Positions 10,105 to 55,766 of a DNA stretch of 64,000 bases are shown one piece after another. Source of the stretch: Candidatus Calditenuis fumarioli (GTDB lineage: Archaea; Thermoproteota; Nitrososphaeria_A; Caldarchaeales; Calditenuaceae); contig JANVYR010000001.1 in the NCBI GenBank assembly GCA_030059665.1, positions 480,001 through 544,000 of the forward strand, in the 5' to 3' direction. A program made the translations under genes and the position numbers. The notes beneath the pieces are model-generated. The model did no database searches and was not told where the DNA came from. It saw nothing but the letters and a program-made list of their open reading frames with translations. Each line of letters starts with the position of its first letter. Position 1 is the first letter of the stretch.

Positions 10105-10330
10105 AGGCAACTAAGGTAATACCATTTTTCAGCAACTGATAAGTGCTCTGAATTGAGTTGATATTGAGATTCAATTTTTCGCGCAACGAGCAGCATATAT
10201 AAATCATCTATATGAAATTTTCTGAAGACTACCCCCATCATCTTAAAATAGAGGTCAAAAGATTCATCCGTGCGAAGGGGTGGCGCGGCGGGAAGTCGCG
10301 CAGAGCCCGAAAATCCCGGAATCGGGAACG
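10105..10330 (+). promoter_or_regulatory. CRISPR leader (copy 1)
   Basis: AT-rich, TATA-like ATATATAAA, ends flush with repeat 1; near-identical copy at 54724-54949. Confidence 0.9.
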
Positions 10331-10634
10331 GTGATCCCGAGAGAGGGAGTTGAAAGCTGCTACCGGGATCGGCACGTCAATCTCCTCTACCCATGCCCAC
10401 GTGATCCCGAGAGAGGGAGTTGAAAGGACGCGGAGCAGAAGATCAGAAGTGGTGCGGTCAAGAAAGTATGTGATCCCGAGAGAGGGAGTTGAAAGGATAT
10501 CATTCGTGGCCATGGCCCAGATCCTTAACCTGTCCCGGGTTCTTGTGATCCCGAGAGAGGGAGTTGAAAGCGTCAGTCTGGAGGTGTCAAAAAATACGTT
10601 ACCAAAAAGTGATCCCGAGAGAGGGAGTTGAAAG
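10331..10634 (+). CRISPR. CRISPR array: 5 identical 26-bp repeats GTGATCCCGAGAGAGGGAGTTGAAAG, 4 spacers (44, 43, 49, 38 bp)
   Basis: Repeats start at 10331, 10401, 10470, 10545, 10609; TCCC/GGGA stem followed by 8-nt GTTGAAAG handle. Confidence 0.97.
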
Positions 10635-13720: not shown

Positions 13721-13810
13721 TTGGGGAACGGCAGCGTGTGTTTCGACAGGCAGACTGGTTCGACCGGTATACTCCGATATGAGCTGTTGAGGGAATCACC
13801 AGATCCTATT

Positions 13811-14302
13811 ATGAAATTGATGGCTAAACGACAAAAACCGCATCCCCTCACTGTCAACGGTTATCTATTGGATGGGAAATTCTTTGATGCCGTGACTCAG
13901 GTGAGACCTGGGTCTGGAGGCCCCACTCTGGACGTGGACGAAACTATGCTGGATTATGCGGTAAGGATCGGCACAACCGCGCAAATTAGAGGGATCAAAG
14001 GTCATCAAATGGAGCAGCTGATGGTTTCGCTCGACTCGATCCCAGACAAAAGACTAGCTCTGCTCGTCACCGCGATCTTTGCCATGAGGCAGGCGGAGAG
14101 GAAGCAATTCAACGCAGAAGCCGCTAGGATAGTGTCGGAGGCGATGAAATACCTGTACGAGACCAATAGGGACGTTGATTCAGCGAGGGTGCTCCTCGGC
14201 TTAGCCAAGTGGGTGTACGAGGCGTCAGAGGGCCTTCAACTGAACAGGCCCGTAGGATCCGCCAAGGAATTCGTGAACCTTCTCACGGGGACGAGGCGTT
14301 GA
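13811..14302 (+). CDS. Type III small subunit (Cas11/Csm2-like)
   Basis: All-helical small protein (LLVTAIFAMRQAERKQF...ARVLLGLAKWVYEA), first gene of the RAMP/Cas10 operon; start uncertain (13811 or 13820). Confidence 0.65.
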   Translation: MKLMAKRQKPHPLTVNGYLLDGKFFDAVTQVRPGSGGPTLDVDETMLDYAVRIGTTAQIRGIKGHQMEQLMVSLDSIPDKRLALLVTAIFAMRQAERKQFNAEAARIVSEAMKYLYETNRDVDSARVLLGLAKWVYEASEGLQLNRPVGSAKEFVNLLTGTRR

Positions 14303-15021
14303 CGACCAACCTACGGCCTGAGGAGGTGCTCGACCTCGACGTGCTGAAGAGGCTGACGGTCATCAGGGGAAGGCTCAGGAACGAGACGCCGCTCAGGGTA
14401 GGGATTGGTCGCGAAGGTAGGCTCGGGTCGACGTCGGACATAACCGTCATTAGAACCAAAAGTCTGTGGGGCGAGGAGGTCCCCTACATACCAGGGTCGA
14501 GCCTGAAGGGGGTCTTCAGGTCCTTCGTCGAGCAGCTCGCGAGGTCCGGGGGTTTGCAGGTTCACGACCCATGGGACTTCGAAGCGATGGAGCGGGAGGA
14601 GCGCGGGGGCTTCTGCGTCGTCTGTGCGCTGTTCGGCAGCACAAGAGTCGCCTCGCACGTCAGGATCTACGACGCCTTTCCGCCGGAGGGCAAAGTGCCA
14701 ACTATCGTTTACAAGACCGGCGTGGGCATAGACAGAGACTTCCTCGGTGCCAAGCCGAACATCCTATACACGGAGGAGTTCGTGGAGCCGGGTAACGAAT
14801 GGGAGTTCAGGATGGACGTGATCAACGTTCCCTTCCCTGACGGCGAAGATCCGCGGACGAGGTACCTGAAGGAGCTCCTAGACTCTCTGAAAACGATGGG
14901 GCTCCAGGTTGGTGCCAGGAAGAGCGTCGGAATGGGCCTGGTCAAACTGGTCGGGGGTACCTACGAAGTGTACGCGGTCGAGGGAGGGTCCGTCAGTAAG
15001 GTCTCGGAGGGGACGATCTGA
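14299..15021 (+). CDS. csm3: Cas7-group RAMP (Csm3-like)
   Basis: ETPLRVGIG, PYIPGSSLKGVFRS, CVVCALFG, G-rich loop GARKSVGMG; TTG start overlaps upstream stop. Confidence 0.88.
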   Translation: MTTNLRPEEVLDLDVLKRLTVIRGRLRNETPLRVGIGREGRLGSTSDITVIRTKSLWGEEVPYIPGSSLKGVFRSFVEQLARSGGLQVHDPWDFEAMEREERGGFCVVCALFGSTRVASHVRIYDAFPPEGKVPTIVYKTGVGIDRDFLGAKPNILYTEEFVEPGNEWEFRMDVINVPFPDGEDPRTRYLKELLDSLKTMGLQVGARKSVGMGLVKLVGGTYEVYAVEGGSVSKVSEGTI

Positions 15022-15022
15022 G

Positions 15023-15916
15023 TTGAACGTCTACTGGACATCAGGAAGGCTGCTTCTGCGCGAGGTCGTCTTCGAGGCCGAGATGGTCAACACGGCCCCG
15101 CTCAGGGTCGGCGTCGGAAGAACTGCACCCCTCAAAGCACCCGTTGACCTCGCGGTCATCCGGATCAGACGAAACGGAAATGCTGAGGAGCCCTACGTCC
15201 CAGGATCTTCGCTCAAGGGGGTCTTCAGGACCAACGCCGAATTACTACTTCGCTTCAAGCGTCCCCGCGTCGCGCCCTGCAGCGGCCTCTCTAAGAACAC
15301 ATGCATGAACGTCAAGACCATAGGCGACAAGAAATTAATGGACGCGGTACAGGATTTGCAGCAAGAGGGGAAGAGCGAGGATGCGATGAAGCTCTTCTTC
15401 GAGAACGCCTGCCTACTCTGCAAGGTCTTCGGTGCTCCCTCCTACGCGGGCAGGGTCGTCTTCCAAGACGCTTATGTCAAGGGCCCCTTCAGGCTGGGGT
15501 TCCGGACGGGCATCGCGATAGACCGGAGGACGGGTGCCGTCTTCGAAAGACAGCTCTACCAAGTGGAGTACGTCGAGCCAGGTGCCAGGTTCGGGCTCGT
15601 AGTCTCGGCGAGGAACCTCCCGAACTACGCCATAGGCCTGCTGGCGAGGGTGCTTTTCATGCTGCACCAGGGCGAGATCCGGATCGGCGGCTTCAAGACG
15701 AGGGGCTTCGGCACCGTCAGGCTGGAGAGCCCCATCTTGAGGGTGAAGAACTACGCCGGCGGACAGGACCTCGAGCCGCTGGAGGACGTCGACGCTCCCG
15801 TGAGGCTGGGCGACATCTTCTCGGTAGAGGACGGACAGCACGTCGCCCGCGGTGACCGGGCGTGGGAGGCCCTCCGGAGGTTCGCGGAGGTGTGGGACGC
15901 TGTCAAGCTCAGTTAG
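15023..15916 (+). CDS. csm3: Cas7-group RAMP (Csm3-like)
   Basis: TAPLRVGVG, PYVPGSSLKGVFR, CLLCKVFG, IGGFKTRGFG; TTG start at 15023 chosen. Confidence 0.88.
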   Translation: MNVYWTSGRLLLREVVFEAEMVNTAPLRVGVGRTAPLKAPVDLAVIRIRRNGNAEEPYVPGSSLKGVFRTNAELLLRFKRPRVAPCSGLSKNTCMNVKTIGDKKLMDAVQDLQQEGKSEDAMKLFFENACLLCKVFGAPSYAGRVVFQDAYVKGPFRLGFRTGIAIDRRTGAVFERQLYQVEYVEPGARFGLVVSARNLPNYAIGLLARVLFMLHQGEIRIGGFKTRGFGTVRLESPILRVKNYAGGQDLEPLEDVDAPVRLGDIFSVEDGQHVARGDRAWEALRRFAEVWDAVKLS

Positions 15917-15917
15917 A

Positions 15918-16850
15918 ATGATGGTCAGAAGGGATAGGCCGCGGGACAGGAGCCAGCTTTCTGGCGTACGGGGACTCCTCCGAATGAGGATCAGGACGGA
16001 GGGCTACCTCCACGTCGGAAGCGGGCTAGAGCGGCTTGAGATCCCTCCCGCGGACAGGTTGAAGGAAGAGCTGAGGAGGTACGGATGGAACGCTGCGGTC
16101 GAGCGATTGTCCCGTGAGATCTCGAGGGGCTTCATGGAGATGGTCCTCGTGAACGGGAGGCCGTGCGTTCCTGGCTCGAGCGTGAAGGGGAACGTCAGGT
16201 CCCGGATAGAGCTCAGCATCGTTGCGAGGAACGGCGCGGTCAGGTCCTGCTACGTCAGGGCGTCGCCACCGCAGCTCGCGTCTGACAGGAGGGCGTGGCG
16301 TCACAGGGCGATCTGGGGCAATGAGGTGCTGAGGGAGGACAGGGGACCACCATGCGACCTGACGAGAGGGAGCAGCGTCTGCCTGGTATGTGACCTCTTC
16401 GGAACCGCAGGGTTGAAGGGGCTGATCGAGTTCGGCGACTTCGTCGGCGAGGACGTCGAGCTGGAACCCGTCGAGGGACAGTTCGGGCTGAAGCTCATGG
16501 CCGCCAAACCGGGCTCTCAGTTCATCGGGAACGTGTCGTTCACCAACCTCAGGCCCTGGGAGCTGGGCTTGCTTCTCTTCGGCATGGGCATCAGGAACGG
16601 GCCTGTGGGCGAGCAGGTCCTTCTTGGTCGGCTCAAGTACGTCGGCGCAATCGGAAACAGGCCCATCGGCAGGGTGAGGTACGTACTCGACGCCATCGAG
16701 CTCTCGCAGTACTCGGAACCGCTCTTCGACCTGAAACCCGGTCAGGTGCGGAGCGGCGAGAGCCTGAGCGGTGTCATCGTGAAACTGATGGAGGAGCTGA
16801 GGAAAGAGATGGGAGAGGAGCTGAGGTGGTCTGTGAAGGAGGTCAGGTGA
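15918..16850 (+). CDS. Cas7-group RAMP
   Basis: EGYLHVGSG, PCVPGSSVKGNVRS, CLVCDLFG, LLGRLKY. Confidence 0.85.
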   Translation: MMVRRDRPRDRSQLSGVRGLLRMRIRTEGYLHVGSGLERLEIPPADRLKEELRRYGWNAAVERLSREISRGFMEMVLVNGRPCVPGSSVKGNVRSRIELSIVARNGAVRSCYVRASPPQLASDRRAWRHRAIWGNEVLREDRGPPCDLTRGSSVCLVCDLFGTAGLKGLIEFGDFVGEDVELEPVEGQFGLKLMAAKPGSQFIGNVSFTNLRPWELGLLLFGMGIRNGPVGEQVLLGRLKYVGAIGNRPIGRVRYVLDAIELSQYSEPLFDLKPGQVRSGESLSGVIVKLMEELRKEMGEELRWSVKEVR

Positions 16851-16851
16851 G

Positions 16852-19542
16852 ATGCCGCTGGAGTTCAGGTCCCCCGGCTTCCCGGTGTTCAAGGCACACG
16901 TCGTCCCTTTGCGCGGAGGCCACCACTCTGCCGAGATGACGGAGCAGGACGTGCGAGATTGGGAAAGGGTTCTGTACTTGATGAACCAGTTCCTCCGGTT
17001 GCTGACAGGAATCTCCGAGAAGATGAAGGTTGATCGCACCAAGCACGAGAGGTACGAGTTCATCGGCGACGCGATAACGTGGTTCCTCAGGATACCTCTG
17101 ATGAGGGCTCCGCTGATGGGCCTTGTTCCTCACCCCTTCACCTACTACATGGTGTTCAGGCTCATGCACCCGAGGACGGGGAAGGAAGTCGAGACCGACA
17201 CGTTGACCTTCGTTGAGAGGTGCTTTGAGTACAGCGAAACAGCGGAAAGGTTGAGCGAGACAGTCCACGAAGTTACGAAATTGCTCGGCAGGCTCTGGTT
17301 CAGGTTGCCGGCGGACACTAGACCCGTGTACAACACCTCTGGACTCATACCGCACATGCTCCTGACATCGGCGATAGCCTGGGGTATGGTGGCCGACAGG
17401 GGCTTGAGCCGGGAAGACGCTGGGAAGCTGAGGCTCTCGGCCGTCTTCCACGACGCCTCGAAGCCCTTCGACTTCGAGCGACATTATTGTTTGGCGCCCG
17501 ACGTCATCCGCATCGCTCTGGACGGTGTACTGGCAGAAAAGGACATCGCTGAGCTTGAGTCATTCGTGAGGACTCACCACCTCCAGTCGGAGACCGAGCT
17601 GGGCAAGGTGCTGCATCAGGCGGACGTCATCGCAGCGGCATCCGACAGGCTGAGCTCGATCGCAAGGGAAGTGATCTATCCGAAGATCAGGGAGATGGGG
17701 GAAAACCCAGAGGTGGGATATGGCTCCGGGTCCTCAGCCTGGGAGTTCTGGAGGCAGCTGGAGCGCAAGAGGCCGGGGACGATGCTCGAGCTCACCGAGG
17801 AGGGCGCTAGGGCGGTCCTGAGTTCCGGGGTGAAGTCGCTCAGGAGAAGCGCTGCTGCAGAGAATCACGAGACCAACCTTGACGTCTGCCTCATCGATGT
17901 TGGCTCCATACAGGACTTCGTCATGGGGAGCAGCGATTTAAGGTCGGTTGCAGCCGCGAGCCTCGCCGTCGACTTCGCGACGCTGGCACACATACCGCTT
18001 CTGATCCAGTTCACGCTCTCAGACGAGAACGTCTGGGTACCGCTCGAGGCCTTCATGGTGGTCTCCGGCGGAACCATAACCGCCCTCCTTCCGCGCCGTG
18101 TGGCGGATCGGCTCAGGAGGGAATGGAGGGAGAGGATCGCACGGCACCTGGACGAGATCGAGCTCCGGACCTACTTCGCATCCTCGCCGTTCACCGGGAA
18201 CTACGTGAGGGACTCGGCAGAATTGGCAAAAAGGACGTACATCGAGAAGCTGGTTTCGGAGCCAGCGTCGATCAAGGTCCAGGTTCCCGAGGTGAGGGGG
18301 TTCGCGCCGAGGCTGTGCGTCAGCTGCCACACGAGGCCAGCCACAGATGAGGAGGGAAGGTGCCACGTCTGTGCGAAGCTCCGCAGGATCGGGACCGAAT
18401 TTCACTTCGGTAAAAAGTGGAATTCAGGATTCGAGCTGACGGTCGACGGTCGGACCGAGCAGATCGTCCCGCGCAAGTGTTACGAGATGGAGTGGGAAAG
18501 GGCGAGGGAGGGCGACGTGATGTACGTGATTGCCGGTCACGATGGCCCGTTCCTCGAACCCGGCGAGAGGGAGCGGAACTACGCAGTCGTGAAGGTCGAC
18601 GGTAACCTGATGGGCCCCTTCTTCGCGGAGACAGTCTCGCCAACAGACCTCCTCGAGCGGAGCGCGAGGGTCGACATCGCCCTGAAGTCCGCGATCGAGA
18701 TGGCCTTAGCTGAGCTCTTCAGCGAGGTGAGCGGGATCTCGCAGGACGATGCGAGGAAAGCGGTGGCAGCCTGCTTCCTCGGGACGCTCTACGCAGGCGG
18801 TGACGACGCCCTCATCCTGTGTCCGAGCTGGTGCGCCATCCACCTCGCTTCCAGGGTCTCTCAGCACTTCTCGGAGGAGCTCGGTGGTGTGAGGGCGCTT
18901 AGCGCAGGTGTTGCTGCCGCACCTGCGGAGCACAGCGTCTGGGCGCTGATCGAGGCTGCCTCCTGGCTGCTCGAGGTGGCTAAGAAAAAGGTGGGACGCG
19001 AACAGCCATCGGTTGGCGGCATAGCGTTCGACTTCGTCGAGGGTGGAATCCTCTCAGGTTCGTCGGCCGCGGCGAGACACGCGAAGGCCGAGGAGGCAGG
19101 GATCACCCTCCAACCTTACGCGATTTGGGACTCCGGTTCGAGGCCGAACCTCTCAGAGCTGATGGGGACGTTGCTGAATGACACAGGTTTCGGTTACGCG
19201 TACAAGGCATCCCGCGTCAAAGGAGGAAGTGAATACGAGGAGGTGAGGAAGTACCTCAAGAGGCTGAGGGAGGCTGCGGTCGAATCGATCGGCGTCTCCC
19301 GGAACTTCGCGGGCATCTCGTCCGGATCCGAGGTACTCGTGATACACGTAAGCAGGATGGCTGCTAGGGAAGGGAGCGAATCGGCTGAGCAGTCCGAACG
19401 TCTATCGGCTAAGCGGTACGAACGTCTGATGGAACTCGTGAGGTGGTCGATCTCCCGCGCAATGGTCGAAGGTGGCAGGCTGGCGGTCCCGCTCGCAGAC
19501 GTCCTCACCCTGATCAAGTTCCTGGGAGGTGGAACGATGTGA
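16852..19542 (+). CDS. cas10: Cas10 (type III large subunit) with HD nuclease and palm/cyclase domains
   Basis: PADTRP..HMLLTS, VFHDASKP, CVSC..CHVC zinc finger, VKVDGNLMG, YAGGDD. Confidence 0.95.
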   Translation: MPLEFRSPGFPVFKAHVVPLRGGHHSAEMTEQDVRDWERVLYLMNQFLRLLTGISEKMKVDRTKHERYEFIGDAITWFLRIPLMRAPLMGLVPHPFTYYMVFRLMHPRTGKEVETDTLTFVERCFEYSETAERLSETVHEVTKLLGRLWFRLPADTRPVYNTSGLIPHMLLTSAIAWGMVADRGLSREDAGKLRLSAVFHDASKPFDFERHYCLAPDVIRIALDGVLAEKDIAELESFVRTHHLQSETELGKVLHQADVIAAASDRLSSIAREVIYPKIREMGENPEVGYGSGSSAWEFWRQLERKRPGTMLELTEEGARAVLSSGVKSLRRSAAAENHETNLDVCLIDVGSIQDFVMGSSDLRSVAAASLAVDFATLAHIPLLIQFTLSDENVWVPLEAFMVVSGGTITALLPRRVADRLRREWRERIARHLDEIELRTYFASSPFTGNYVRDSAELAKRTYIEKLVSEPASIKVQVPEVRGFAPRLCVSCHTRPATDEEGRCHVCAKLRRIGTEFHFGKKWNSGFELTVDGRTEQIVPRKCYEMEWERAREGDVMYVIAGHDGPFLEPGERERNYAVVKVDGNLMGPFFAETVSPTDLLERSARVDIALKSAIEMALAELFSEVSGISQDDARKAVAACFLGTLYAGGDDALILCPSWCAIHLASRVSQHFSEELGGVRALSAGVAAAPAEHSVWALIEAASWLLEVAKKKVGREQPSVGGIAFDFVEGGILSGSSAAARHAKAEEAGITLQPYAIWDSGSRPNLSELMGTLLNDTGFGYAYKASRVKGGSEYEEVRKYLKRLREAAVESIGVSRNFAGISSGSEVLVIHVSRMAAREGSESAEQSERLSAKRYERLMELVRWSISRAMVEGGRLAVPLADVLTLIKFLGGGTM

Positions 19543-20186
19543 GGAGGTTCACCGTGAGGCTAAGGCCGATCGGGCTCCTGACGGTCGGAGGCTCTCATCC
19601 GGAGCTGGCCGGCGCTGACATCGCGTTCGTCACCACATCGGTGGACGGCCGGGAGGTGGTCTACGTTCCGGCGTCGAGCTTCAAGGGCGCGCTCAGGTCG
19701 TCCGCCAGCAGGGTAGCCGAGAGGTACGGATTCAGGTCGTGCGGCCAGACGAGCCCAGAGCTGATGCAGAGGGCCCACGCGGGATCCGGGACGTGCGACG
19801 TCTGCAGGCTCTTCGGCGTCCCCTCGAGGAACCCGAGCCAGCACCTGTTCTTCGACGACCTGCTTCCGGATGGGAGCCTGACGTCTCGTCAGCTGATAAC
19901 GCGGGTCAGGATAAACGACCGCTCGATGAGGGCCGAGGATGGCGGACTTTACACATCGGAGGCCGTCTATTCCGGCGAGTTCACAGGTCAGGTGAGGTAC
20001 AGCGAGGAAGTCGTTGAGCTGCTTCCGCTCCTGCTGCTGGGCCTCGCGGAGCTGAGGATGGACCGCTTCGGTCGGAGGTCATCGGTGGACCTGAGGCTGG
20101 AGGGGACTGACCAGCTGAGGCAGGACCTCGGGCGTGAGTGGCACCCGCTGCTGGACGCTCTGGAGGGATGGCTTTGGCAGCCCTGA
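19539..20186 (+). CDS. Short Cas7-group RAMP
   Basis: IGLLTVGG, YVPASSFKGALRS, CDVCRLFG; GTG start overlaps cas10 stop. Confidence 0.85.
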   Translation: MRRFTVRLRPIGLLTVGGSHPELAGADIAFVTTSVDGREVVYVPASSFKGALRSSASRVAERYGFRSCGQTSPELMQRAHAGSGTCDVCRLFGVPSRNPSQHLFFDDLLPDGSLTSRQLITRVRINDRSMRAEDGGLYTSEAVYSGEFTGQVRYSEEVVELLPLLLLGLAELRMDRFGRRSSVDLRLEGTDQLRQDLGREWHPLLDALEGWLWQP

Positions 20187-21295
20187 GGGTTTACGAGGTG
20201 AGGGTGAGGATCCTGAGCCCGACGATAATCACAAGGCGTAGGACGGAGAACGGCTTCCTCGGGCCCCTCGACTACATACCGGCCCAGACGTTGAGGGGTG
20301 CGGTCGTCAGCTCGCTCTTCATGGAAGGGCTGATGGACCGAAACAGGATGAGGGCAGAGGAGGAGGTGCCGACGGTCTTCTCGAGCCCAGCCTATCCTGT
20401 CATCGGTGGAGCGAGGACCTACCCCGCTCATCCGTTCGCGATGGAGTGCAAGGTCTGCGCTGAGAAGGGAGAGGCGACGCTCGTTGGCGAGCTGGACCCG
20501 ACGAAGCTGGAGGATTCCCTTGCGGAGCAGCGCGATCTCGAGCTCGTTCCGGTCGAGTGCGGGAGCGGCCACAGGGCCCTCAAACCCCTCCACCCGAACA
20601 AGTTCCTGGTGCTCGAGGGAGGGAAGTTCTCGGCTCCGAAGGAGAGAAGGGGAGGCGCGAGGGCTGAGGGTGGGGGCCGTGCCAGCGCGGAGAAATCCCA
20701 CTCGGTCTCTGTCGCGATCAGCAGGGGCAGGGCCGCGGGCATCAAGGGCATGCTCTACCACTACGAGTTCCTGATGCCGGGGAAGGAGTTCTGGGCGACG
20801 CTGGTCCTCCCAGCGGAGCTGAGCATTCCGGGAAACGGTCTCCAGCTAATGATCGGACGCGGCGTCTCGAGGGGCTTCGGGAGGGCGAGGATGCACGTCG
20901 TGGGTGAGGTGACCTCCTCCTTCAGCGGAACCGTTAAGGTCCTCTACGCTCTCTCGCCAACGCTTGGAGCCTCCGACGGTAATTCCACTTATCCTTCCAC
21001 AATAGAACTGCGTGATGTTGCCCGCAGGTTCGGGCTTGAGGCGGAAAGGACCGTTCGCGTATCGAGGGCCTACGGCAGGACGGTTTGGGTCAGCGCGGGC
21101 TGGAGCATGGTCCGAGGGGAGCCGAGGCCCAGAGTCCTTTGCAGGGCGCAGGGATCGCTACTGGTTTTGGAAGAACAGGTGGAGGGCGAGGCGTCGAAAG
21201 CGTTATCGCTGCTGAGGTACACGGGAACGGTGACCGAACTGAATGGCCGGAAGGTCTTCGGCTTCAATCACCTGGTGCCCCTGGGGTGTATGTGA
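20168..21295 (+). CDS. Cas5-group RAMP (Csm4/Csx10-like)
   Basis: ILSPTII, YIPAQTLRGA, IGRGVSRGFG, AQGSLLV; CKVC..CGSGH insertion. Confidence 0.8.
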   Translation: MALAALRVYEVRVRILSPTIITRRRTENGFLGPLDYIPAQTLRGAVVSSLFMEGLMDRNRMRAEEEVPTVFSSPAYPVIGGARTYPAHPFAMECKVCAEKGEATLVGELDPTKLEDSLAEQRDLELVPVECGSGHRALKPLHPNKFLVLEGGKFSAPKERRGGARAEGGGRASAEKSHSVSVAISRGRAAGIKGMLYHYEFLMPGKEFWATLVLPAELSIPGNGLQLMIGRGVSRGFGRARMHVVGEVTSSFSGTVKVLYALSPTLGASDGNSTYPSTIELRDVARRFGLEAERTVRVSRAYGRTVWVSAGWSMVRGEPRPRVLCRAQGSLLVLEEQVEGEASKALSLLRYTGTVTELNGRKVFGFNHLVPLGCM

Positions 21296-22272
21296 TGCAC
21301 CTCAACTCCCTCCGGTACAAGACCGTGGCGGTCTTCACCTTCCGCGTCAGGAACCCCCTCCACATCGGGACAGGCGAGTTCGGAGCCGTCAAGAGGATAC
21401 TGAGGATCGGCGACGGAGTCCTGATTCCCTCCTCAACGTGGAAGGGCGCCATCAGGAACGTGGCTGAGAAATTGGCTCGAGGCATGATAGCTCAGCTCGG
21501 TGGCCTCGAGAGGTTGGCGCTCGCATGCTACCGGGAGGAGTCCGGGGAAATCCGTTACGAACTCGACAGAGGACACCTGGAGCGGCTCTTCGGGCATGAG
21601 CGGGCCGCGCTGATCGAGGAGGAGTACAGGAGGGCGAGGGAGGAGTTCAAGAGGATTCTGAGAGAGCAGCTGGAGATCTACTTTAGAGGGGACGGGCTGG
21701 ACGGTATCGGGAATGAGCTGAGGACGCTTCTCGACATCGGTTACAGGCCGGAGGATCTGACCGACCACAGGAGGTTCCAGCTCGACGAGGCGTTCGCCGA
21801 GTACCTCGCCTACCACTGCCCGATCGGCCGCTTATTCGGCAATAGAGTGCTTTCGGGAAAGGTGAGACCCCAGGACACTCTCCTGATGCCCGAACGGATA
21901 GAGCTCAAGCCGGGCGTCGGGATCGATCGGAGGTCCGGAAAGGTCAGCGAGGGGCATCTGAGGTTCCTCGAGACGATACCGCCTGGAACAGAGGTGAAAC
22001 TCACGCTCGTCGCGGACAACCTCTTCCCGGGCGATGCGGACTCGAGGCTGATGGCAGGGGTTCTCGAGTGGATCAAGGATTTGGGGCTTCAGATCGGCAC
22101 TGGGAAGAGCACCGGACTGGGTCTGCTCGAGCTGGAGAGCGGCGAGGTCTGGCACTGGGAGCTCGGCGGGGACGCTGACTCAAGGGGAGCTGTCCTCGCG
22201 AACCCGTTCAGATCCGGCCTCAGGCCCATGGACGTCAAAGCCTTCGTCTCCCTGCTCAGGTCGGTAGGGTGA
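21295..22272 (+). CDS. Cas7-group RAMP (Csm5-like position)
   Basis: RNPLHIGTG, LIPSSTWKGAIR, HCPIGRLFG, IGTGKSTGLG. Confidence 0.85.
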   Translation: MHLNSLRYKTVAVFTFRVRNPLHIGTGEFGAVKRILRIGDGVLIPSSTWKGAIRNVAEKLARGMIAQLGGLERLALACYREESGEIRYELDRGHLERLFGHERAALIEEEYRRAREEFKRILREQLEIYFRGDGLDGIGNELRTLLDIGYRPEDLTDHRRFQLDEAFAEYLAYHCPIGRLFGNRVLSGKVRPQDTLLMPERIELKPGVGIDRRSGKVSEGHLRFLETIPPGTEVKLTLVADNLFPGDADSRLMAGVLEWIKDLGLQIGTGKSTGLGLLELESGEVWHWELGGDADSRGAVLANPFRSGLRPMDVKAFVSLLRSVG

Positions 22273-23771
22273 TGACAGCGGCCCAGGCGTCGGGCGTCCG
22301 ACCCAAGAGGCTCATCGTCTATCAGCTCCTGGGGAAACTAGAGACCTACAGGGTGACCCGGTACAGAGTGGGGGGCAGTGGTCGTGAGGTGGAGAGCTGT
22401 TTCTCCTCCGTCGCGATAGCAGATCACTACGCATTTGATCAGGGGATATCCGAATGCGAGATCAGGTTCTTCGCGCCCATAAGCCTCATCTCCCCGCGGA
22501 CGGACTCGAACGGCTTCCTGGACCTGGAGGTCTTCAGGGAAAAGATAGATGCATGGATCAGGCGGGTTGAGAAGGACGTTCGCTGGAGAGCTGAGATCGT
22601 CCCGCTACCCGCCTTCGGGAGCTACAAACCTGAGGACGGCGATCAGACCGTCTGGACCTACAACGCGACTCTCGGTTCCGTCGCAGCTGCTGCGCTGGTG
22701 GACATGTTGCGGTCGACGCACCTCATCAGGGAAAGGGACCAGGAGGTGCATCTGGTGCTAAACGTCTCGACCGGTCACAACTCCTACATACCGTCGCTGA
22801 TCGAGGCCCTCAAGGCTTTGCTGGTGCTTGACGGCGCTCTGTCGCTCGGAAAGGGGGGCGTCGTGGTCGATGCCTGCTATGCAGCGGTGGACGCGATGCG
22901 GCAAGAACCCGGATCGGTGCTGAACGTCTACCTGCTCAAGACCTCGGCGAAGTTCTTCATCGACTATCCCTTCGAATGGAAGGACATTGGGGGGAAGAAC
23001 TATACGCTCAAAGAGCTTTGCCGTGAGTCGGCAAATGTTCTACCCGAGACTCTTAAGATCGAGGCCAGACCTGTTCTGAAGCGAACGAATAAAGTCCTAG
23101 TCAAGGGGTTAAAGGCCTTTAACGCGTTCAGGTACGGAGCTCCTCTGGCGCTGCTGGACCGGAGACTGATCTCACTGGACTCACAGGAGGCCCTCGGATG
23201 CGCGGAGGAGGTCTTGAGCTTGGTCGATAAGATCCTGAGACCGACCGTCTCCGGGACGGTGATCTCGGTCCCCTATGTGGACTTCAACCAGCTGAGGTCG
23301 CTTCTGATCGCGTTCGCCATCGCTGCAGCCATATCGAGCAAGGTCTCGGAGCTGGGTGACTTTGATCCCCAGAGAGGTGTTCCGCTGGAAACGTTAGAAA
23401 GGTTCTCCCGCCTCTACGAGGATCTACCCGAGCTGAAGATCAACTCGAGACTGCTTTCGAAGGAGCTGCTGGAGCTGAAAACGCTCTCGTCTGAGGTCTC
23501 TTCAACAAGTTGGCAGAAGCTGAAAACTCTTAGGGAGCAGCGCGAGGCGAAATCCAAGGAGGGGGCGCTGAGGAAGGAGAGGCCCTCTCGCGATGACGAG
23601 AAATCCGAAGGGAAGGGATATCCCCAGACAAGCGACGAGAAGAGGAACTTCTACGCCCACGCAGGCCTGTCGAGGAACGAGGTCGAGGTGATGAAGGAGG
23701 GAGAGAAGATCCTTCTGAGATACAACGAGGACCGGATACCTGTGATAAAGAATTGGTTGCTGGAGCCCTAA
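22269..23771 (+). CDS. csx1: Csx1-type CARF-HEPN cOA-activated ribonuclease
   Basis: LNVSTGHNSY (DxTHG-class CARF motif variant) and C-terminal KRNFYAHAGL (R-x4-6-H HEPN). Confidence 0.88.
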   Translation: MMTAAQASGVRPKRLIVYQLLGKLETYRVTRYRVGGSGREVESCFSSVAIADHYAFDQGISECEIRFFAPISLISPRTDSNGFLDLEVFREKIDAWIRRVEKDVRWRAEIVPLPAFGSYKPEDGDQTVWTYNATLGSVAAAALVDMLRSTHLIRERDQEVHLVLNVSTGHNSYIPSLIEALKALLVLDGALSLGKGGVVVDACYAAVDAMRQEPGSVLNVYLLKTSAKFFIDYPFEWKDIGGKNYTLKELCRESANVLPETLKIEARPVLKRTNKVLVKGLKAFNAFRYGAPLALLDRRLISLDSQEALGCAEEVLSLVDKILRPTVSGTVISVPYVDFNQLRSLLIAFAIAAAISSKVSELGDFDPQRGVPLETLERFSRLYEDLPELKINSRLLSKELLELKTLSSEVSSTSWQKLKTLREQREAKSKEGALRKERPSRDDEKSEGKGYPQTSDEKRNFYAHAGLSRNEVEVMKEGEKILLRYNEDRIPVIKNWLLEP

Positions 23772-23826
23772 TGATCGCAATTCCCGATCTGGGTTAAGGC
23801 TGGTTTTTGGTGGCGAAGGAACCCTA

Positions 23827-24636
23827 TCATGGGTCAGAGAAGGCCACCCAGTAGATCACCCTGCCGAATTCGGTCATCTCGTACTTGCCGTCCCTCTCCC
23901 TGATCAGCATGAGGTCCTCGAGCATCCGCTCGGCGACCTCCTTACCGTACCTCCTCTCGAACTCTGACGCATCCATTGACCCCCTGCTGAGGTCCATCAG
24001 CGCAGACCTGTAAACCCTATCGAGGACGTCCTCCCTCCAATCGATCGGGAGCGGCGGGATGAAGACGGTGGTCCTGAAGTCCTCGTGCCTGTAGTAGACC
24101 GGCTTGCCCATGACGAATGCCAGGATGCTTAGGGCCGTCCCCTCGGGCTTGTATCCGCCGGTCGCGTTGACCAGGACCGCATCTTCCCTGTGCTTCTTGA
24201 TGAGCTCGTGCGTCACGAGCAGGAGGTTCTGGAGGCCCCTCTCCCTGAATTCCTCCTCGTTCCTGAAGCCCTCGATCCTCCTCCTCTCGGCCCTGATGCC
24301 CGATCTGTTCAGGTGCCGCTCGAGAACCGTACCGCAGACCTCTCCCACCTCCGTGTCCGTGTGGAGGAGATAGACCAGATCCACGAGCCTCCTATCGATG
24401 TGCTCCGACATCGAGGTTAGCTCGGCGCATGCCGCGTTTCCTTTTCGTGAGACGTACGAGAGCAGCGCCTCGACCAGCTCCCTTCGAGTGGGCCTTCCGT
24501 CCCTGAGGGCGTTCTCGACGTCCCGCACGCTCGATGCGTTGGGGAGCAGCTGTTTGACGTTCTGGTCATCCCTCAAAGCGTTCGTCAGCAGGCTCGCGCC
24601 TACCGTGACTATGTGGACGCGAACCCTCCTCGGCAA
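23827..24636 (-). CDS. APE2256/Crn1-like CARF protein with C-terminal winged helix; putative ring nuclease
   Basis: TVGASLL, ELTSM, LLHTDTEVGEVC, VNATGGYKPE, YYRHE; TTG start at 24636 chosen. Confidence 0.8.
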   Translation of the reverse strand: MPRRVRVHIVTVGASLLTNALRDDQNVKQLLPNASSVRDVENALRDGRPTRRELVEALLSYVSRKGNAACAELTSMSEHIDRRLVDLVYLLHTDTEVGEVCGTVLERHLNRSGIRAERRRIEGFRNEEEFRERGLQNLLLVTHELIKKHREDAVLVNATGGYKPEGTALSILAFVMGKPVYYRHEDFRTTVFIPPLPIDWREDVLDRVYRSALMDLSRGSMDASEFERRYGKEVAERMLEDLMLIRERDGKYEMTEFGRVIYWVAFSDP

Positions 24637-24963
24637 GTCGGGCCACCTTCGGTTCAGGCGGATGGCCCGGCCTATAAGAGCGTTCCGAGACTTTCTGACG
24701 TCACGGGGTGAGCGCATCTTCCTGAAGTTTTGATGTGTTATCGTGCTGCATTCATAGCCTCCAAATCCGCGAACTCCCTCACATCAACCTCCTGATGGAG
24801 ATCCAACCCGATCCGCATCCCGTGCCGCCCTCTCTCCGAACGCATTACCCACGGCTCCTCCAGGGACTCATCGGGGTCCATTTTTCAAGCTGCGGGTGTG
24901 AGTTACGGGGATCGGCGAACAGCGCAATGGCGCTCCCTGCGATGACCTAGGGTTTCTCCGACG

Positions 24964-53353: not shown

Positions 53354-54197
53354 GGCCCAAGACCCTCTCCGCGTTCCTCCAGAGGATCATCTCCTTCGTT
53401 TCGCGCTTCAGCTCGATCCTCTCGAAGTCAGCGAGCCACCTCGAAGGCCTGATCATCGGGTAGTCCGATCCGAACAGGACCTTCTCGGGGATCAGGTTGT
53501 CGGCGTACCTCCAGACCACCTGCGGTATGTACCTGGGAGACCAGCCCGAGAGCTCGATGTACACGTTAGCCTTGTGCTGAGCGATCGCCAGCGCCTCCTC
53601 GTACCAGGGCCAGCCGAAGTGGGCCATCACGACCTTCAGGCGCGGGAACTGGGCGGCGACGTTGTCGACGTAGATCGGCCTGCCGTGGTCCAGCCTGATC
53701 CCACCTCCTCCTTCCAGGCCAGCCCCTATCCCGGAGGTGCCCGTGTGGAAGAGCACCGGTATCCCGAGGTCCTCCGCCATCTGGTAGACCTCGAAGCACC
53801 GCTCGTCGTCTGGCCGGAACCGCTGGAGCTGGGGGTGAAGCTTAAGGCCCCTGAGCCCTAGGTCCTTCACCGCCCTCTCCAGCTCGAGCACCGACCTCTT
53901 CCCTCCGAGGGGGTCAACGGTTGCGAAGGCGATCACGCGTTCCGGGTCCACCCGCTGGAGCTCGGCCATCTGCTCGTTGCTGTCACCGGGGATGCCGGTG
54001 AGCCTCGACGCGTCGAGCGGCAGAAGCACCATCCTCCCCACACCAGCCTCCTCGTACTCCCTCAACGCCTCCTCGATACCTATCTGCCCGAAGTCGCTCC
54101 TGAAGTAGGACCTCATCTTCTCCACGAACGGGCCCAGGGTCCTGAAGAAGCCCGGAGTGGTGAGGTGGACGTGGAAGTCGATCGGTCTCCCGCTCAT
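53346..54197 (-). CDS. Amidohydrolase-2 family protein
   Basis: IDFHVH, GLKLHP, LFHTG, MAHFGWP, LFGSDYP. Confidence 0.9.
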   Translation of the reverse strand: MSGRPIDFHVHLTTPGFFRTLGPFVEKMRSYFRSDFGQIGIEEALREYEEAGVGRMVLLPLDASRLTGIPGDSNEQMAELQRVDPERVIAFATVDPLGGKRSVLELERAVKDLGLRGLKLHPQLQRFRPDDERCFEVYQMAEDLGIPVLFHTGTSGIGAGLEGGGGIRLDHGRPIYVDNVAAQFPRLKVVMAHFGWPWYEEALAIAQHKANVYIELSGWSPRYIPQVVWRYADNLIPEKVLFGSDYPMIRPSRWLADFERIELKRETKEMILWRNAERVLGLR

Positions 54198-54263
54198 GGG
54201 TCGTGTGGTGAACAGTCACAGATTAGAATTTGCTCGGTCGGAGCTTCCAGAAACGCAAATCCG

Positions 54264-54335
54264 TGGACCGGGCGGGACTCGAACCCGCGACCTCCCGGGT
54301 GCGAACCGGGCGATCTGCCGCTGATCTACCGGCCC
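54264..54335 (-). tRNA. tRNA-Ala(CGC)
   Basis: Reverse complement GGGCCGGTAGATCAG...CCCGG-TT-CGC-AC-CCGGG...GTTCGAGT...CCGGTCCA. Confidence 0.93.
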
Positions 54336-54723
54336 AAGCATCGACTATTTTCCATCTTAGCATTTAAACCTTAAGTAGAGGATGCCTTGTGGCTTATTTC
54401 ATCGGCCTATTTCTGCTGGATATTGCGTAATCATAACTACTGGTAATTACCCACAGGCATTCGATTCTGAGGTCTTTCCTATCGAGGTTCAGGGGAGTAA
54501 GCAAGAGGTACCTCCAAGCATACCTATCGATCCTAGCGCTTCTGATCGACATGCCTAGGAGTTGGTTCAGTCCGCTGCTATCCCTTTCGATGCCGAGACG
54601 AGCGTTTGTAAAATTTTGGTTGACGGCGTGAACGGGAAGGGGACGTCGTTATCAGATCCGTAGATCTCCGGTCATCCCCTGCTCGGCCTCTACTCGTCGG
54701 TTTGGCGTACGGTCGATAGCAAG

Positions 54724-54949
54724 AGGCAACTAAGGTAATACCATTTTTCAGCAACTGATAAGTGCTCTGAATTGAGTTGATATTGAGATTCAACTTTTAC
54801 CTCATCGAGCAGCATATATAAATCCCCTAAATGAATTTTGCTGAAGACAACCCCAATCATCTTAAAATAGAGGTCAAAAAATTCATCCGTGCGAAGGGGT
54901 GGCGCGGCGGGAAGCCGCGCAGAGCCCGAAAATCCCGGAATCGGGAACG
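54724..54949 (+). promoter_or_regulatory. CRISPR leader (copy 2)
   Basis: 226 bp, colinear with 10105-10330, about 14 substitutions by eye, no indels. Confidence 0.9.
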
Positions 54950-54975
54950 GTGATCCCGAGAGAGGGAGTTGAAAG
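54950..54975 (+). CRISPR. Solitary perfect CRISPR repeat (no second repeat)
   Basis: GTGATCCCGAGAGAGGGAGTTGAAAG, identical to the array repeat. Confidence 0.92.
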
Positions 54976-55010
54976 TCCATATCAACGAATCGCGTGGGGA
55001 GCGAGTAGGG

Positions 55011-55766
55011 TCAAGCCCTCGAGAAGGGCTTGGTCCTGAGGTTTTCGGGGTCGAGGCGCGCTATCACCTCCCTCTCCTCCCTCGTGGGCTCCCGCGTGGG
55101 CGGTGCATCCCTGCCTGTGACGTCGAAGCCGGTGGACGCGATCACCTCGTCGACGGATGACCAGGGATGGACCGACAGGAGCCTCCACGCCCTTTTCTCC
55201 CTCTCGTGCTCGAGGAGGCAGAGGTCTGTGCAGAGCAGGACCCTGTTGGACGCGTTCCTGGCGGTGGCGGTGACGAAGTCGACCCGCCTGACGAGGCTTC
55301 TTGGACCGTGCCTGAAGTTCCACAGGACCGCCTTCCTGACGAGAGGGAGTATGAAGGCAGCAGCCGCGCCTCCGGGCAGCCTCACCTTCGGGCTCTCGAG
55401 CTGGCCGATGACGGAGACGTTGACGTTCGCATCGGAGTCGATCTGCGCCGGTCCTAGGAACATCACGTCCACCTTGCCCTTCTGGGCGAGGTCGAAGGCG
55501 TCGACCGTTGGCATGACGGCCCCCAGACCAGCCAGCTCAGGGTCACCGGTGGAGCGCTTGACCTGGATGTCCGCCAGCGACGGCTCGTAACCCTCCGCGA
55601 CCGTTGTGACCCTGATCCGCTTCCCGTGGACGAGCTTGGCGACGGCCGCCGCGAGCAGAGCGTGGTGCGAGTTGAGGCCCACGAAGACCAAGTCGCCGTC
55701 GGAGAGGAGGTCCGCCATGCAGGTCACTATCAGGTCCGCAGCGTAAGTGGGGTCCCGGAAGGCCAT
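55011..55766 (-). CDS. CoA-transferase beta subunit (GctB/PcaJ-like)
   Basis: MFLGPAQID...NVSVIG...RLPGGAAAA, VRRVDFVT, TDLC, TGF. Confidence 0.85.
   Translation of the reverse strand: MAFRDPTYAADLIVTCMADLLSDGDLVFVGLNSHHALLAAAVAKLVHGKRIRVTTVAEGYEPSLADIQVKRSTGDPELAGLGAVMPTVDAFDLAQKGKVDVMFLGPAQIDSDANVNVSVIGQLESPKVRLPGGAAAAFILPLVRKAVLWNFRHGPRSLVRRVDFVTATARNASNRVLLCTDLCLLEHEREKRAWRLLSVHPWSSVDEVIASTGFDVTGRDAPPTREPTREEREVIARLDPENLRTKPFSRA

Follow-up and report, generated by a model that had tools for sequence, protein, structure and literature searches.

For a spacer-less CRISPR locus made up of a leader and one repeat, the closest described counterparts include an engineered construct: in Escherichia coli, a type I-E leader with a single repeat acquires spacers as well as the full array does, and the authors of that work predicted that recombination between repeats may leave a single repeat (Yosef et al. 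2012, PMC3384332). Natural loci down to one repeat, with fixed positions and slow turnover, have been described in Escherichia and Salmonella (Touchon and Rocha 2010, PMC2886076). In Pyrococcus furiosus, which has several arrays away from its cas genes with a conserved leader and repeat in common, Cas1-Cas2 use a short leader joined to a single repeat as an integration substrate (PMC6698737). Repeats outside normal arrays, with the potential to give a tag-bearing RNA, are also known from the mini-arrays and single repeat units behind the crRNA-like regulators CreA, scaRNA and crlRNA (Shmakov et al. 2023, bioRxiv 10.1101/2023.03.03.530964), and Racrs and viral solitary repeat units carry a solitary repeat identical to that of the host array (Camara-Wilpert et al. 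2023, PMC10651486).

Here we analysed a locus with a leader and a single repeat, termed locus C, in Candidatus Calditenuis fumarioli. The window (the whole stretch of 64,000 nt that was analysed; G000:C1:480001-544000) belongs to a Caldarchaeales-like genome of 1.57 Mb in three contigs, which is 91% complete. Locus C has the same composition as the E. coli construct; however, that construct was engineered in a bacterial type I-E system, whereas locus C occurs naturally in the chromosome of an archaeon with types I-A and III-D, and no acquisition was seen at it. It is natural and fixed in position like the Escherichia and Salmonella loci, but those occupy ancestral CRISPR positions, often after cas loss, whereas locus C came in by a lineage-specific insertion and complete cas modules are present in its genome. 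Dispersed arrays with a common leader and repeat are shared with P. furiosus, whose arrays, to our knowledge, hold many spacers each and are never spacer-less; in contrast, all loci described here are tiny, with 0-7 spacers. CreA, scaRNA and crlRNA lie in or beside cas loci, usually have degenerate repeats and come without an acquisition leader, none of which holds for locus C, and their spacer partly matches the promoter of a cas or toxin gene, a match that locus C lacks. Racrs reside on phages and plasmids, whereas locus C is chromosomal, lies among housekeeping genes and has a full leader. From these features, locus C would be best filed with minimal or empty CRISPR arrays, and not with regulatory mini-arrays or viral solitary repeat units.

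A leader and one perfect repeat in a genome with complete cas modules

Besides the type III-D operon in the window (Table 1), the genome encodes a type I-A module on contig C2 at 267-277 kb, comprising Csa5, Cas7, Cas5a, Cas3', Cas3'', Cas6, Csa1, Cas1, Cas2 and Cas4; Csa1, Cas1, Cas2, Cas4 and Cas6 are all full-length (G000:C2:273-277 kb). This cas content agrees with the combination of types I-A and III-D published for Candidatus Calditenuis fumarioli (PMC10547907). The repeat and leader occur at seven sites in the genome, with 0-7 spacers each, which puts locus C, with zero spacers, at one extreme of a family of very small arrays. In the stretch examined around the type I-A and adaptation module (G000:C2:262001-282000), no CRISPR array lies within 20 kb, and the arrays of this genome are dispersed orphans. 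A Cas1 N-terminal fragment of 75 residues adjoins the distal end of array E (G000:C2:414061-414285).

Table 1. Features at and around locus C, and the seven leader-repeat loci of the genome (window positions unless a contig is named)
Feature	Position	Strand	Remarks
CRISPR leader copy C	54714..54949	+	five further leaders of the genome share 90-96% identity
Extended upstream leader region	54603..54713	+	common only to loci A, B and C
Single CRISPR repeat, 26 nt, GTGATCCCGAGAGAGGGAGTTGAAAG	54950..54975	+	exact match to consensus
Native intergenic remnant, not a spacer	54976..55010		aligns with the CoA-transferase-to-tRNA spacer of three relatives
CoA-transferase beta-subunit-like gene, 251 aa	55011..55766	-	PF01144, E 4.9e-22; convergent with the leader
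Inverted repeat (hairpin) across the CoA-transferase stop codon	55007..55037		TTTT on the plus strand at 55042-55045
tRNA-Ala(CGC)	54263..54335	-	ARAGORN and Rfam; ancestral neighbour of the CoA-transferase gene, displaced
Putative replacement tRNA promoter cassette (TTTAAAT box)	54336..54382	-	~85% identity to the tRNA upstream region at G000:C1:626.8 kb
Dispersed element, ~155 nt	54453..54608		within the inserted block
Type III-D effector operon (Csx7-like RAMPs, Cas10, Csx10) with Csx1 and ring nuclease	13721..24717		Pfam and NCBIfam
Locus A	C1:307 kb		8 repeats, distal ones mutated
Locus B	10105..10634	+	leader + 5 perfect repeats, 4 spacers; reference copy
Locus C	54714..54975	+	leader + 1 repeat
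Locus D	C2:384 kb		2 mutated repeats + remnant
Locus E	C2:414 kb		3 repeats, abuts the Cas1 N-terminal fragment
Locus F	C2:497 kb		1 perfect + 1 degenerate repeat
Locus G	C2:174 kb		38 nt of leader + 1 degenerate repeat

The initial annotation had described, by eye, a second leader colinear with that of locus B (about 14 substitutions, no indels), followed by one perfect repeat and then by 35 nt up to the stop codon of a convergent CoA-transferase gene, with no second repeat visible. All of this was borne out. In pairwise and six-leader alignments, window positions 54724-54949 matched leader B (10105-10330) over 226 positions with 93.8% identity, 14 substitutions and 0 indels, and in all copies the homology reached ~10 nt further upstream, to ~54714. 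The extended leader of locus C (~110-115 nt) was 76-86% identical to that of locus A (G000:C1:307062-307177) and matched that of locus B more weakly. The core of the leader, 91 nt at 54859-54949, begins at the TATA-like TTAAAATA and is conserved across species, being matched also in leaders of two further genomes (G005 and G016). In the six-leader alignment, this core was pure consensus in copy C, and the seven substitutions private to copy C all lay at least 95 nt upstream of the repeat, with a distal patch at 95-156 nt; the leader-proximal 94 nt and the repeat carried none, unlike leaders A, B, D, E and F.

The leader directly abuts the repeat, GTGATCCCGAGAGAGGGAGTTGAAAG, which occurred exactly at 54950-54975 and five times within 10331-10634, with 0 matches in 100 shuffles; it was identical at 26/26 positions to the consensus of arrays A and B, and it ends with the 8 nt GTTGAAAG. 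With up to 8 errors allowed, a fuzzy search found no second repeat within 400 nt. The best local alignment of the repeat with the next 200 nt scored 20, as against a mean of 20.5 in 3000 random genome windows, 62% of which scored at least as high as the downstream stretch; the absence of a second repeat thus extends to degenerate copies. A degenerate repeat hidden in the 3' end of the CoA-transferase gene was rejected, given that the searches stayed at chance level and that the C-terminal codons are orthologous to those of the relatives. The formal definition of an array, at least two repeats around a unique spacer, therefore leaves locus C outside.

Within 53900-55300, the only known RNA family detected with Rfam was the tRNA. 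On the minus strand, an open frame at 54690-54980 spans the whole leader and the repeat, and it is open in five of the six copies. As a protein-coding gene, this 83-codon frame antisense to the leader was dismissed: the variable columns were spread 14/12/14 over the codon positions, and copy F is frameshifted. Since there is no codon-position bias, the frame is probably a chance feature inherited by copying.

Insertion between a CoA-transferase gene and tRNA-Ala(CGC)

In three related species, genes for an AsnC-type regulator, an acetyl-CoA synthetase (ACS) and the CoA-transferase are followed, ~70 nt past the CoA-transferase stop codon, by a tRNA-Ala(CGC) gene in the same orientation, and the contigs of these species carry neither repeat nor leader at the orthologous site. 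CoA-transferase orthologues have 75-85% identity, and those on the contigs of these three species 77-83% at the amino-acid level. In the window, 675 nt separate tRNA-Ala(CGC) from the CoA-transferase stop codon (55011-55013, minus strand). Given the distance of only ~70 nt in the relatives, the leader-repeat unit is held by a lineage-specific insertion of ~0.6 kb, in which the repeat, the leader, ~110 nt of extended leader, a dispersed element of ~155 nt and ~70 nt of remaining sequence succeed each other from the repeat towards the tRNA.

One junction of this insertion was resolved within 3 nt and coincides with the spacer-side end of the repeat: in the alignment with the three related species, native homology restarts 0-3 nt behind its final base. 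The 35 nt at 54976-55010 align with the corresponding spacer of the relatives, indicating that they are native DNA; this alignment also rules out a former spacer at this position. Their minus strand carries TTGATAT, the TATA-like box of the ancestral tRNA-Ala; in the relatives this box precedes the tRNA by 31 nt. We read this box as the old tRNA promoter, now apparently orphaned beside the repeat and pointing into it. The insertion would have separated tRNA-Ala from this promoter, and the tRNA may now use the TTTAAAT cassette in place of the lost box.

As to the source of the insert, no convincing transposon-like terminal repeats or target-site duplication were found around it. Copies of the ~155-nt dispersed element are present at G000:C2:51386-51540 (78%) and C1:763441-763555 (75%), and at least five occur in a related genome (G015, 81-83%); the element has no Rfam match. 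In one relative, which is without the array of locus A, the native flank of this site contains the initial 12-14 nt of the locus C extended leader, which weakly suggests that locus C was copied from an A-like locus. The leader-repeat module that was inserted in the ~70-nt spacer between CoA-transferase and tRNA-Ala(CGC), in the lineage of the species, thus probably originated as a copy of an array-A-like locus in the same genome. Neither a virus nor a plasmid nor an integrated element was found as a carrier of locus C. Its flanks are chromosomal housekeeping genes (amidohydrolase, tRNA-Ala, CoA-transferase and acetyl-CoA synthetase) and were the same in all assemblies.

Several of the other loci also coincide with changes in gene order. 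Compared with genomes of the same genus, locus B too is an insertion, the genes on either side of it lying 970 nt apart here and 154 nt apart there, and loci A and F are at synteny breakpoints. No insertion junction was obtained at nucleotide level at these loci, as the surroundings of B are too diverged, A and F lie at synteny breaks and D has no conserved downstream flank. The NuoD-like and S15 genes, which are next to tRNA-Ala in the relatives, are ~23 kb away here and inverted (G000:C1:557544-559466); this displacement is a separate rearrangement with a breakpoint beside the tRNA.

A CoA-transferase paralogue with 55% identity is located ~530 nt upstream of leader D, with the gene for ribosomal protein S14 in between (G000:C2:383290-384021), and in the related genome G002 this paralogue abuts the left flank of locus A (G002:C3:18666-20753). 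The region of the paralogue is rearrangement-prone. A shared duplication as the reason for the paralogue near leader D was rejected, as only the gene and the leader are paralogous, the S14 gene intervenes and the relatives have no repeat at that place. Both locus C, at tRNA-Ala, and remnant G, 64 nt after an intron-containing tRNA-Leu gene (G000:C2:173910-174155), lie less than 300 nt from a tRNA gene; positions no more than 400 nt away from such a gene make up ~2% of the genome, and the comparison with tRNA-adjacent loci was made post hoc.

A possible transcript reading into the CoA-transferase gene

The leader carries a TATA-like box conserved across species, and the predicted fold of the transcript region is stable (z = -3.8). 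The hairpin across the CoA-transferase stop codon, together with the TTTT behind it, is a possible end point of leader-driven transcripts. Fold, hairpin and TTTT are compatible with a discrete RNA without being evidence for one. Inside the CoA-transferase coding sequence, a 16-mer at 55061-55076 is complementary at 14/16 positions to the 3' part of the repeat, and a similar stretch (about 13/16, counted by eye) is found in the coding sequence of the G002 orthologue, so that the 16-mer is older than the insertion. In a read-through transcript, pairing between the 16-mer and the repeat would be possible.

The initial annotation had considered that the solitary repeat might give a handle-bearing RNA whose guide is the downstream 35 nt and continues antisense into the CoA-transferase gene. 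Spelled out, Cas6 would cut the leader-driven transcript to an RNA that begins at 54968 with the 8-nt tag GUUGAAAG and whose guide is antisense to the CoA-transferase/ACS mRNA at its 3' end or 3' UTR. Loaded with this RNA, the type III-D complex would cleave the mRNA, with Cas10 inactive on account of full pairing between tag and anti-tag. We consider this scheme, together with its effector step, very unlikely, even though its geometry is fitting: the repeat ends in GTTGAAAG, the convergent stop codon follows after 35 nt, and, as far as can be read from the positions of its T-runs, the convergent mRNA probably terminates only past the repeat. Type III crRNAs are trimmed at the 3' end and loaded without a downstream repeat, and pairing of the tag with the target allows RNA cleavage and blocks Cas10 activation. 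The stable fold of the transcript region and the existence of single repeat units in other systems also speak for the scheme. The guide, however, is unmodified ancestral intergenic DNA, as seen in the alignment with the three relatives. A search of the genome for trans targets of 54976-55020 gave a 14-mer as the best non-self match (E = 0.16), so that the relation to the CoA-transferase gene in cis is the only antisense relation. The full acquisition leader and the perfect repeat are unlike those of described regulatory mini-arrays, and the distances are large: 31 kb to the nearest cas gene in the III-D operon, 30 kb to the ring-nuclease gene, and the type I-A module on another contig. Moreover, the terminal repeat of any array would yield the same type of by-product.

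There is thus no sign of selection for targeting, because the guide is ancestral, has no other target and comes without the traits of mini-arrays; what had been proposed as a guide is the DNA of an orphaned tRNA promoter, and the proposal found no support. An antisense effect of such an RNA would amount at most to clipping of the 3' UTR. On the reading of locus C as a spacer-less array, too, transcription and cutting by Cas6, if they occur, would give one crRNA-like RNA with native DNA as its guide. This by-product should be harmless, because a PAM for type I-A is absent and full tag pairing marks it as self for type III.

An empty locus in eleven assemblies

An exact-sequence look-up with the CoA-transferase protein retrieved ten other assemblies from other samples, eight NCBI MAGs and two JGI metagenomes. 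In all ten, the region between CoA-transferase and amidohydrolase measured 813 nt and differed from the window by 0-2 SNPs, and no spacer was present at locus C in any of the 11 assemblies (the window genome and these ten). The comparison of orthologous loci named as a check in the initial annotation thus gave two answers: locus C is constant within the species, with the same spacer-less structure throughout, and the unit is missing in the three related species.

This result bears directly on the suspicion, raised in the same annotation, that the assembly had collapsed a longer array. Short-read assemblers do have difficulty with such loci, as seen from contigs of other assemblies that end at the leader of array B, which exists in several copies. 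However, a branching repeat would normally be expected to break contigs and not to join a leader to a trailer, arrays with 1-7 spacers were assembled in the same genome, and ten independent assemblies from other samples agree on the same 813 nt. An assembly artefact is thereby effectively refuted and seems to us extremely unlikely, and the spacer-less state appears to be fixed in the sampled populations.

Array B behaved differently. In two JGI contigs it contained one spacer, as compared with four here, and none was in common. The JGI spacer (L053:578-620) overlaps the target region of spacer 3 (10496-10544), and its borders and several positions differ, indicating that it was acquired independently. 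The targets look related, and the two spacers may represent independent acquisitions against related invaders. Because the spacer content of array B varies between strains, adaptation has operated in the species. In one JGI sample with an altered array B, locus C was empty; that both contigs stem from the same strain is probable, although not demonstrable.

Taken together, locus C is probably a genuine spacer-less CRISPR locus, naive or collapsed, that arose from a leader-repeat insertion. The initial annotation had gone one step further in calling it a naive or collapsed array still able to acquire spacers. Its first part agrees with our results, and the consensus leader core, the perfect repeat and the complete adaptation module are consistent with its second part; since no acquisition was seen in 11 assemblies, we keep that ability as an inference. 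The leader-proximal sequence and the one repeat of locus C match what Cas1-Cas2 need for integration in tested systems. Spacers may never have been acquired, or they may have been acquired and lost through recombination between repeats, and in nature the locus would see little or no use. Between leader C and the other copies, 4-10% of positions differ, which suggests that leader C has existed for some time without a net gain of spacers.

The absence of spacers from all 11 assemblies, while array B differs completely between strains, may also mean that locus C is incompetent and not just empty; the orphaned promoter facing the repeat from the other side could interfere. The strongest form of this thought is that the leader-repeat copy is an inert relic, a neutral by-product of segmental duplication or rearrangement that neither the adaptation machinery nor the effectors use. 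Decay is visible at loci D, F and G, which have mutated or truncated repeats or leaders, loci A and F are at synteny breakpoints, and mini-arrays near type III loci have been judged to be for the most part degraded, non-functional repeats (Shmakov et al. 2023, bioRxiv 10.1101/2023.03.03.530964). Nevertheless, no absent sequence feature can be named at locus C, and its repeat and the 94 leader-proximal nt have stayed free of private substitutions, which sets this copy apart from the other five leaders; we therefore regard an inert relic as unlikely, if less so than the regulatory scheme. The best description of the probable spacer-less array is that it is empty and rarely used or repeatedly collapsed, as a competent but idle locus and an inert one would look alike in sequence. 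On the best reading, it is an ordinary object of an already-known kind that points to no new mechanism.

A wider idea concerns the position of the insertion junction. In spacer integration, Cas1-Cas2 make a nick at the spacer-side end of the first repeat, and leader-repeat modules in the Caldarchaeales lineage might have founded new loci as discrete units with this end as their downstream edge. We put this forward as a long shot. If it were true, locus C would be the birth of an array caught in progress, through a broken or misjoined integration intermediate or another reaction specific to the repeat end, and would not derive from random segmental duplication; the tRNA-adjacent leader-repeat units would then go back to the same process, as would the breaks in synteny at loci A and F.

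In theory, an array without spacers is the ground state of CRISPR memory; natural examples are rarely documented because array finders require at least two repeats. Locus C is well pinned down, with an empty ancestral site in three relatives, a junction defined to 3 nt and a probable donor locus in the same genome, and many samples show the same fixed state, in contrast to the turnover of a sister array. Locus C is a neat natural illustration of an array at, or close to, its birth, and it offers a natural substrate for comparing active with silent leaders in an archaeon with multiple arrays and for studying the origin of new arrays.
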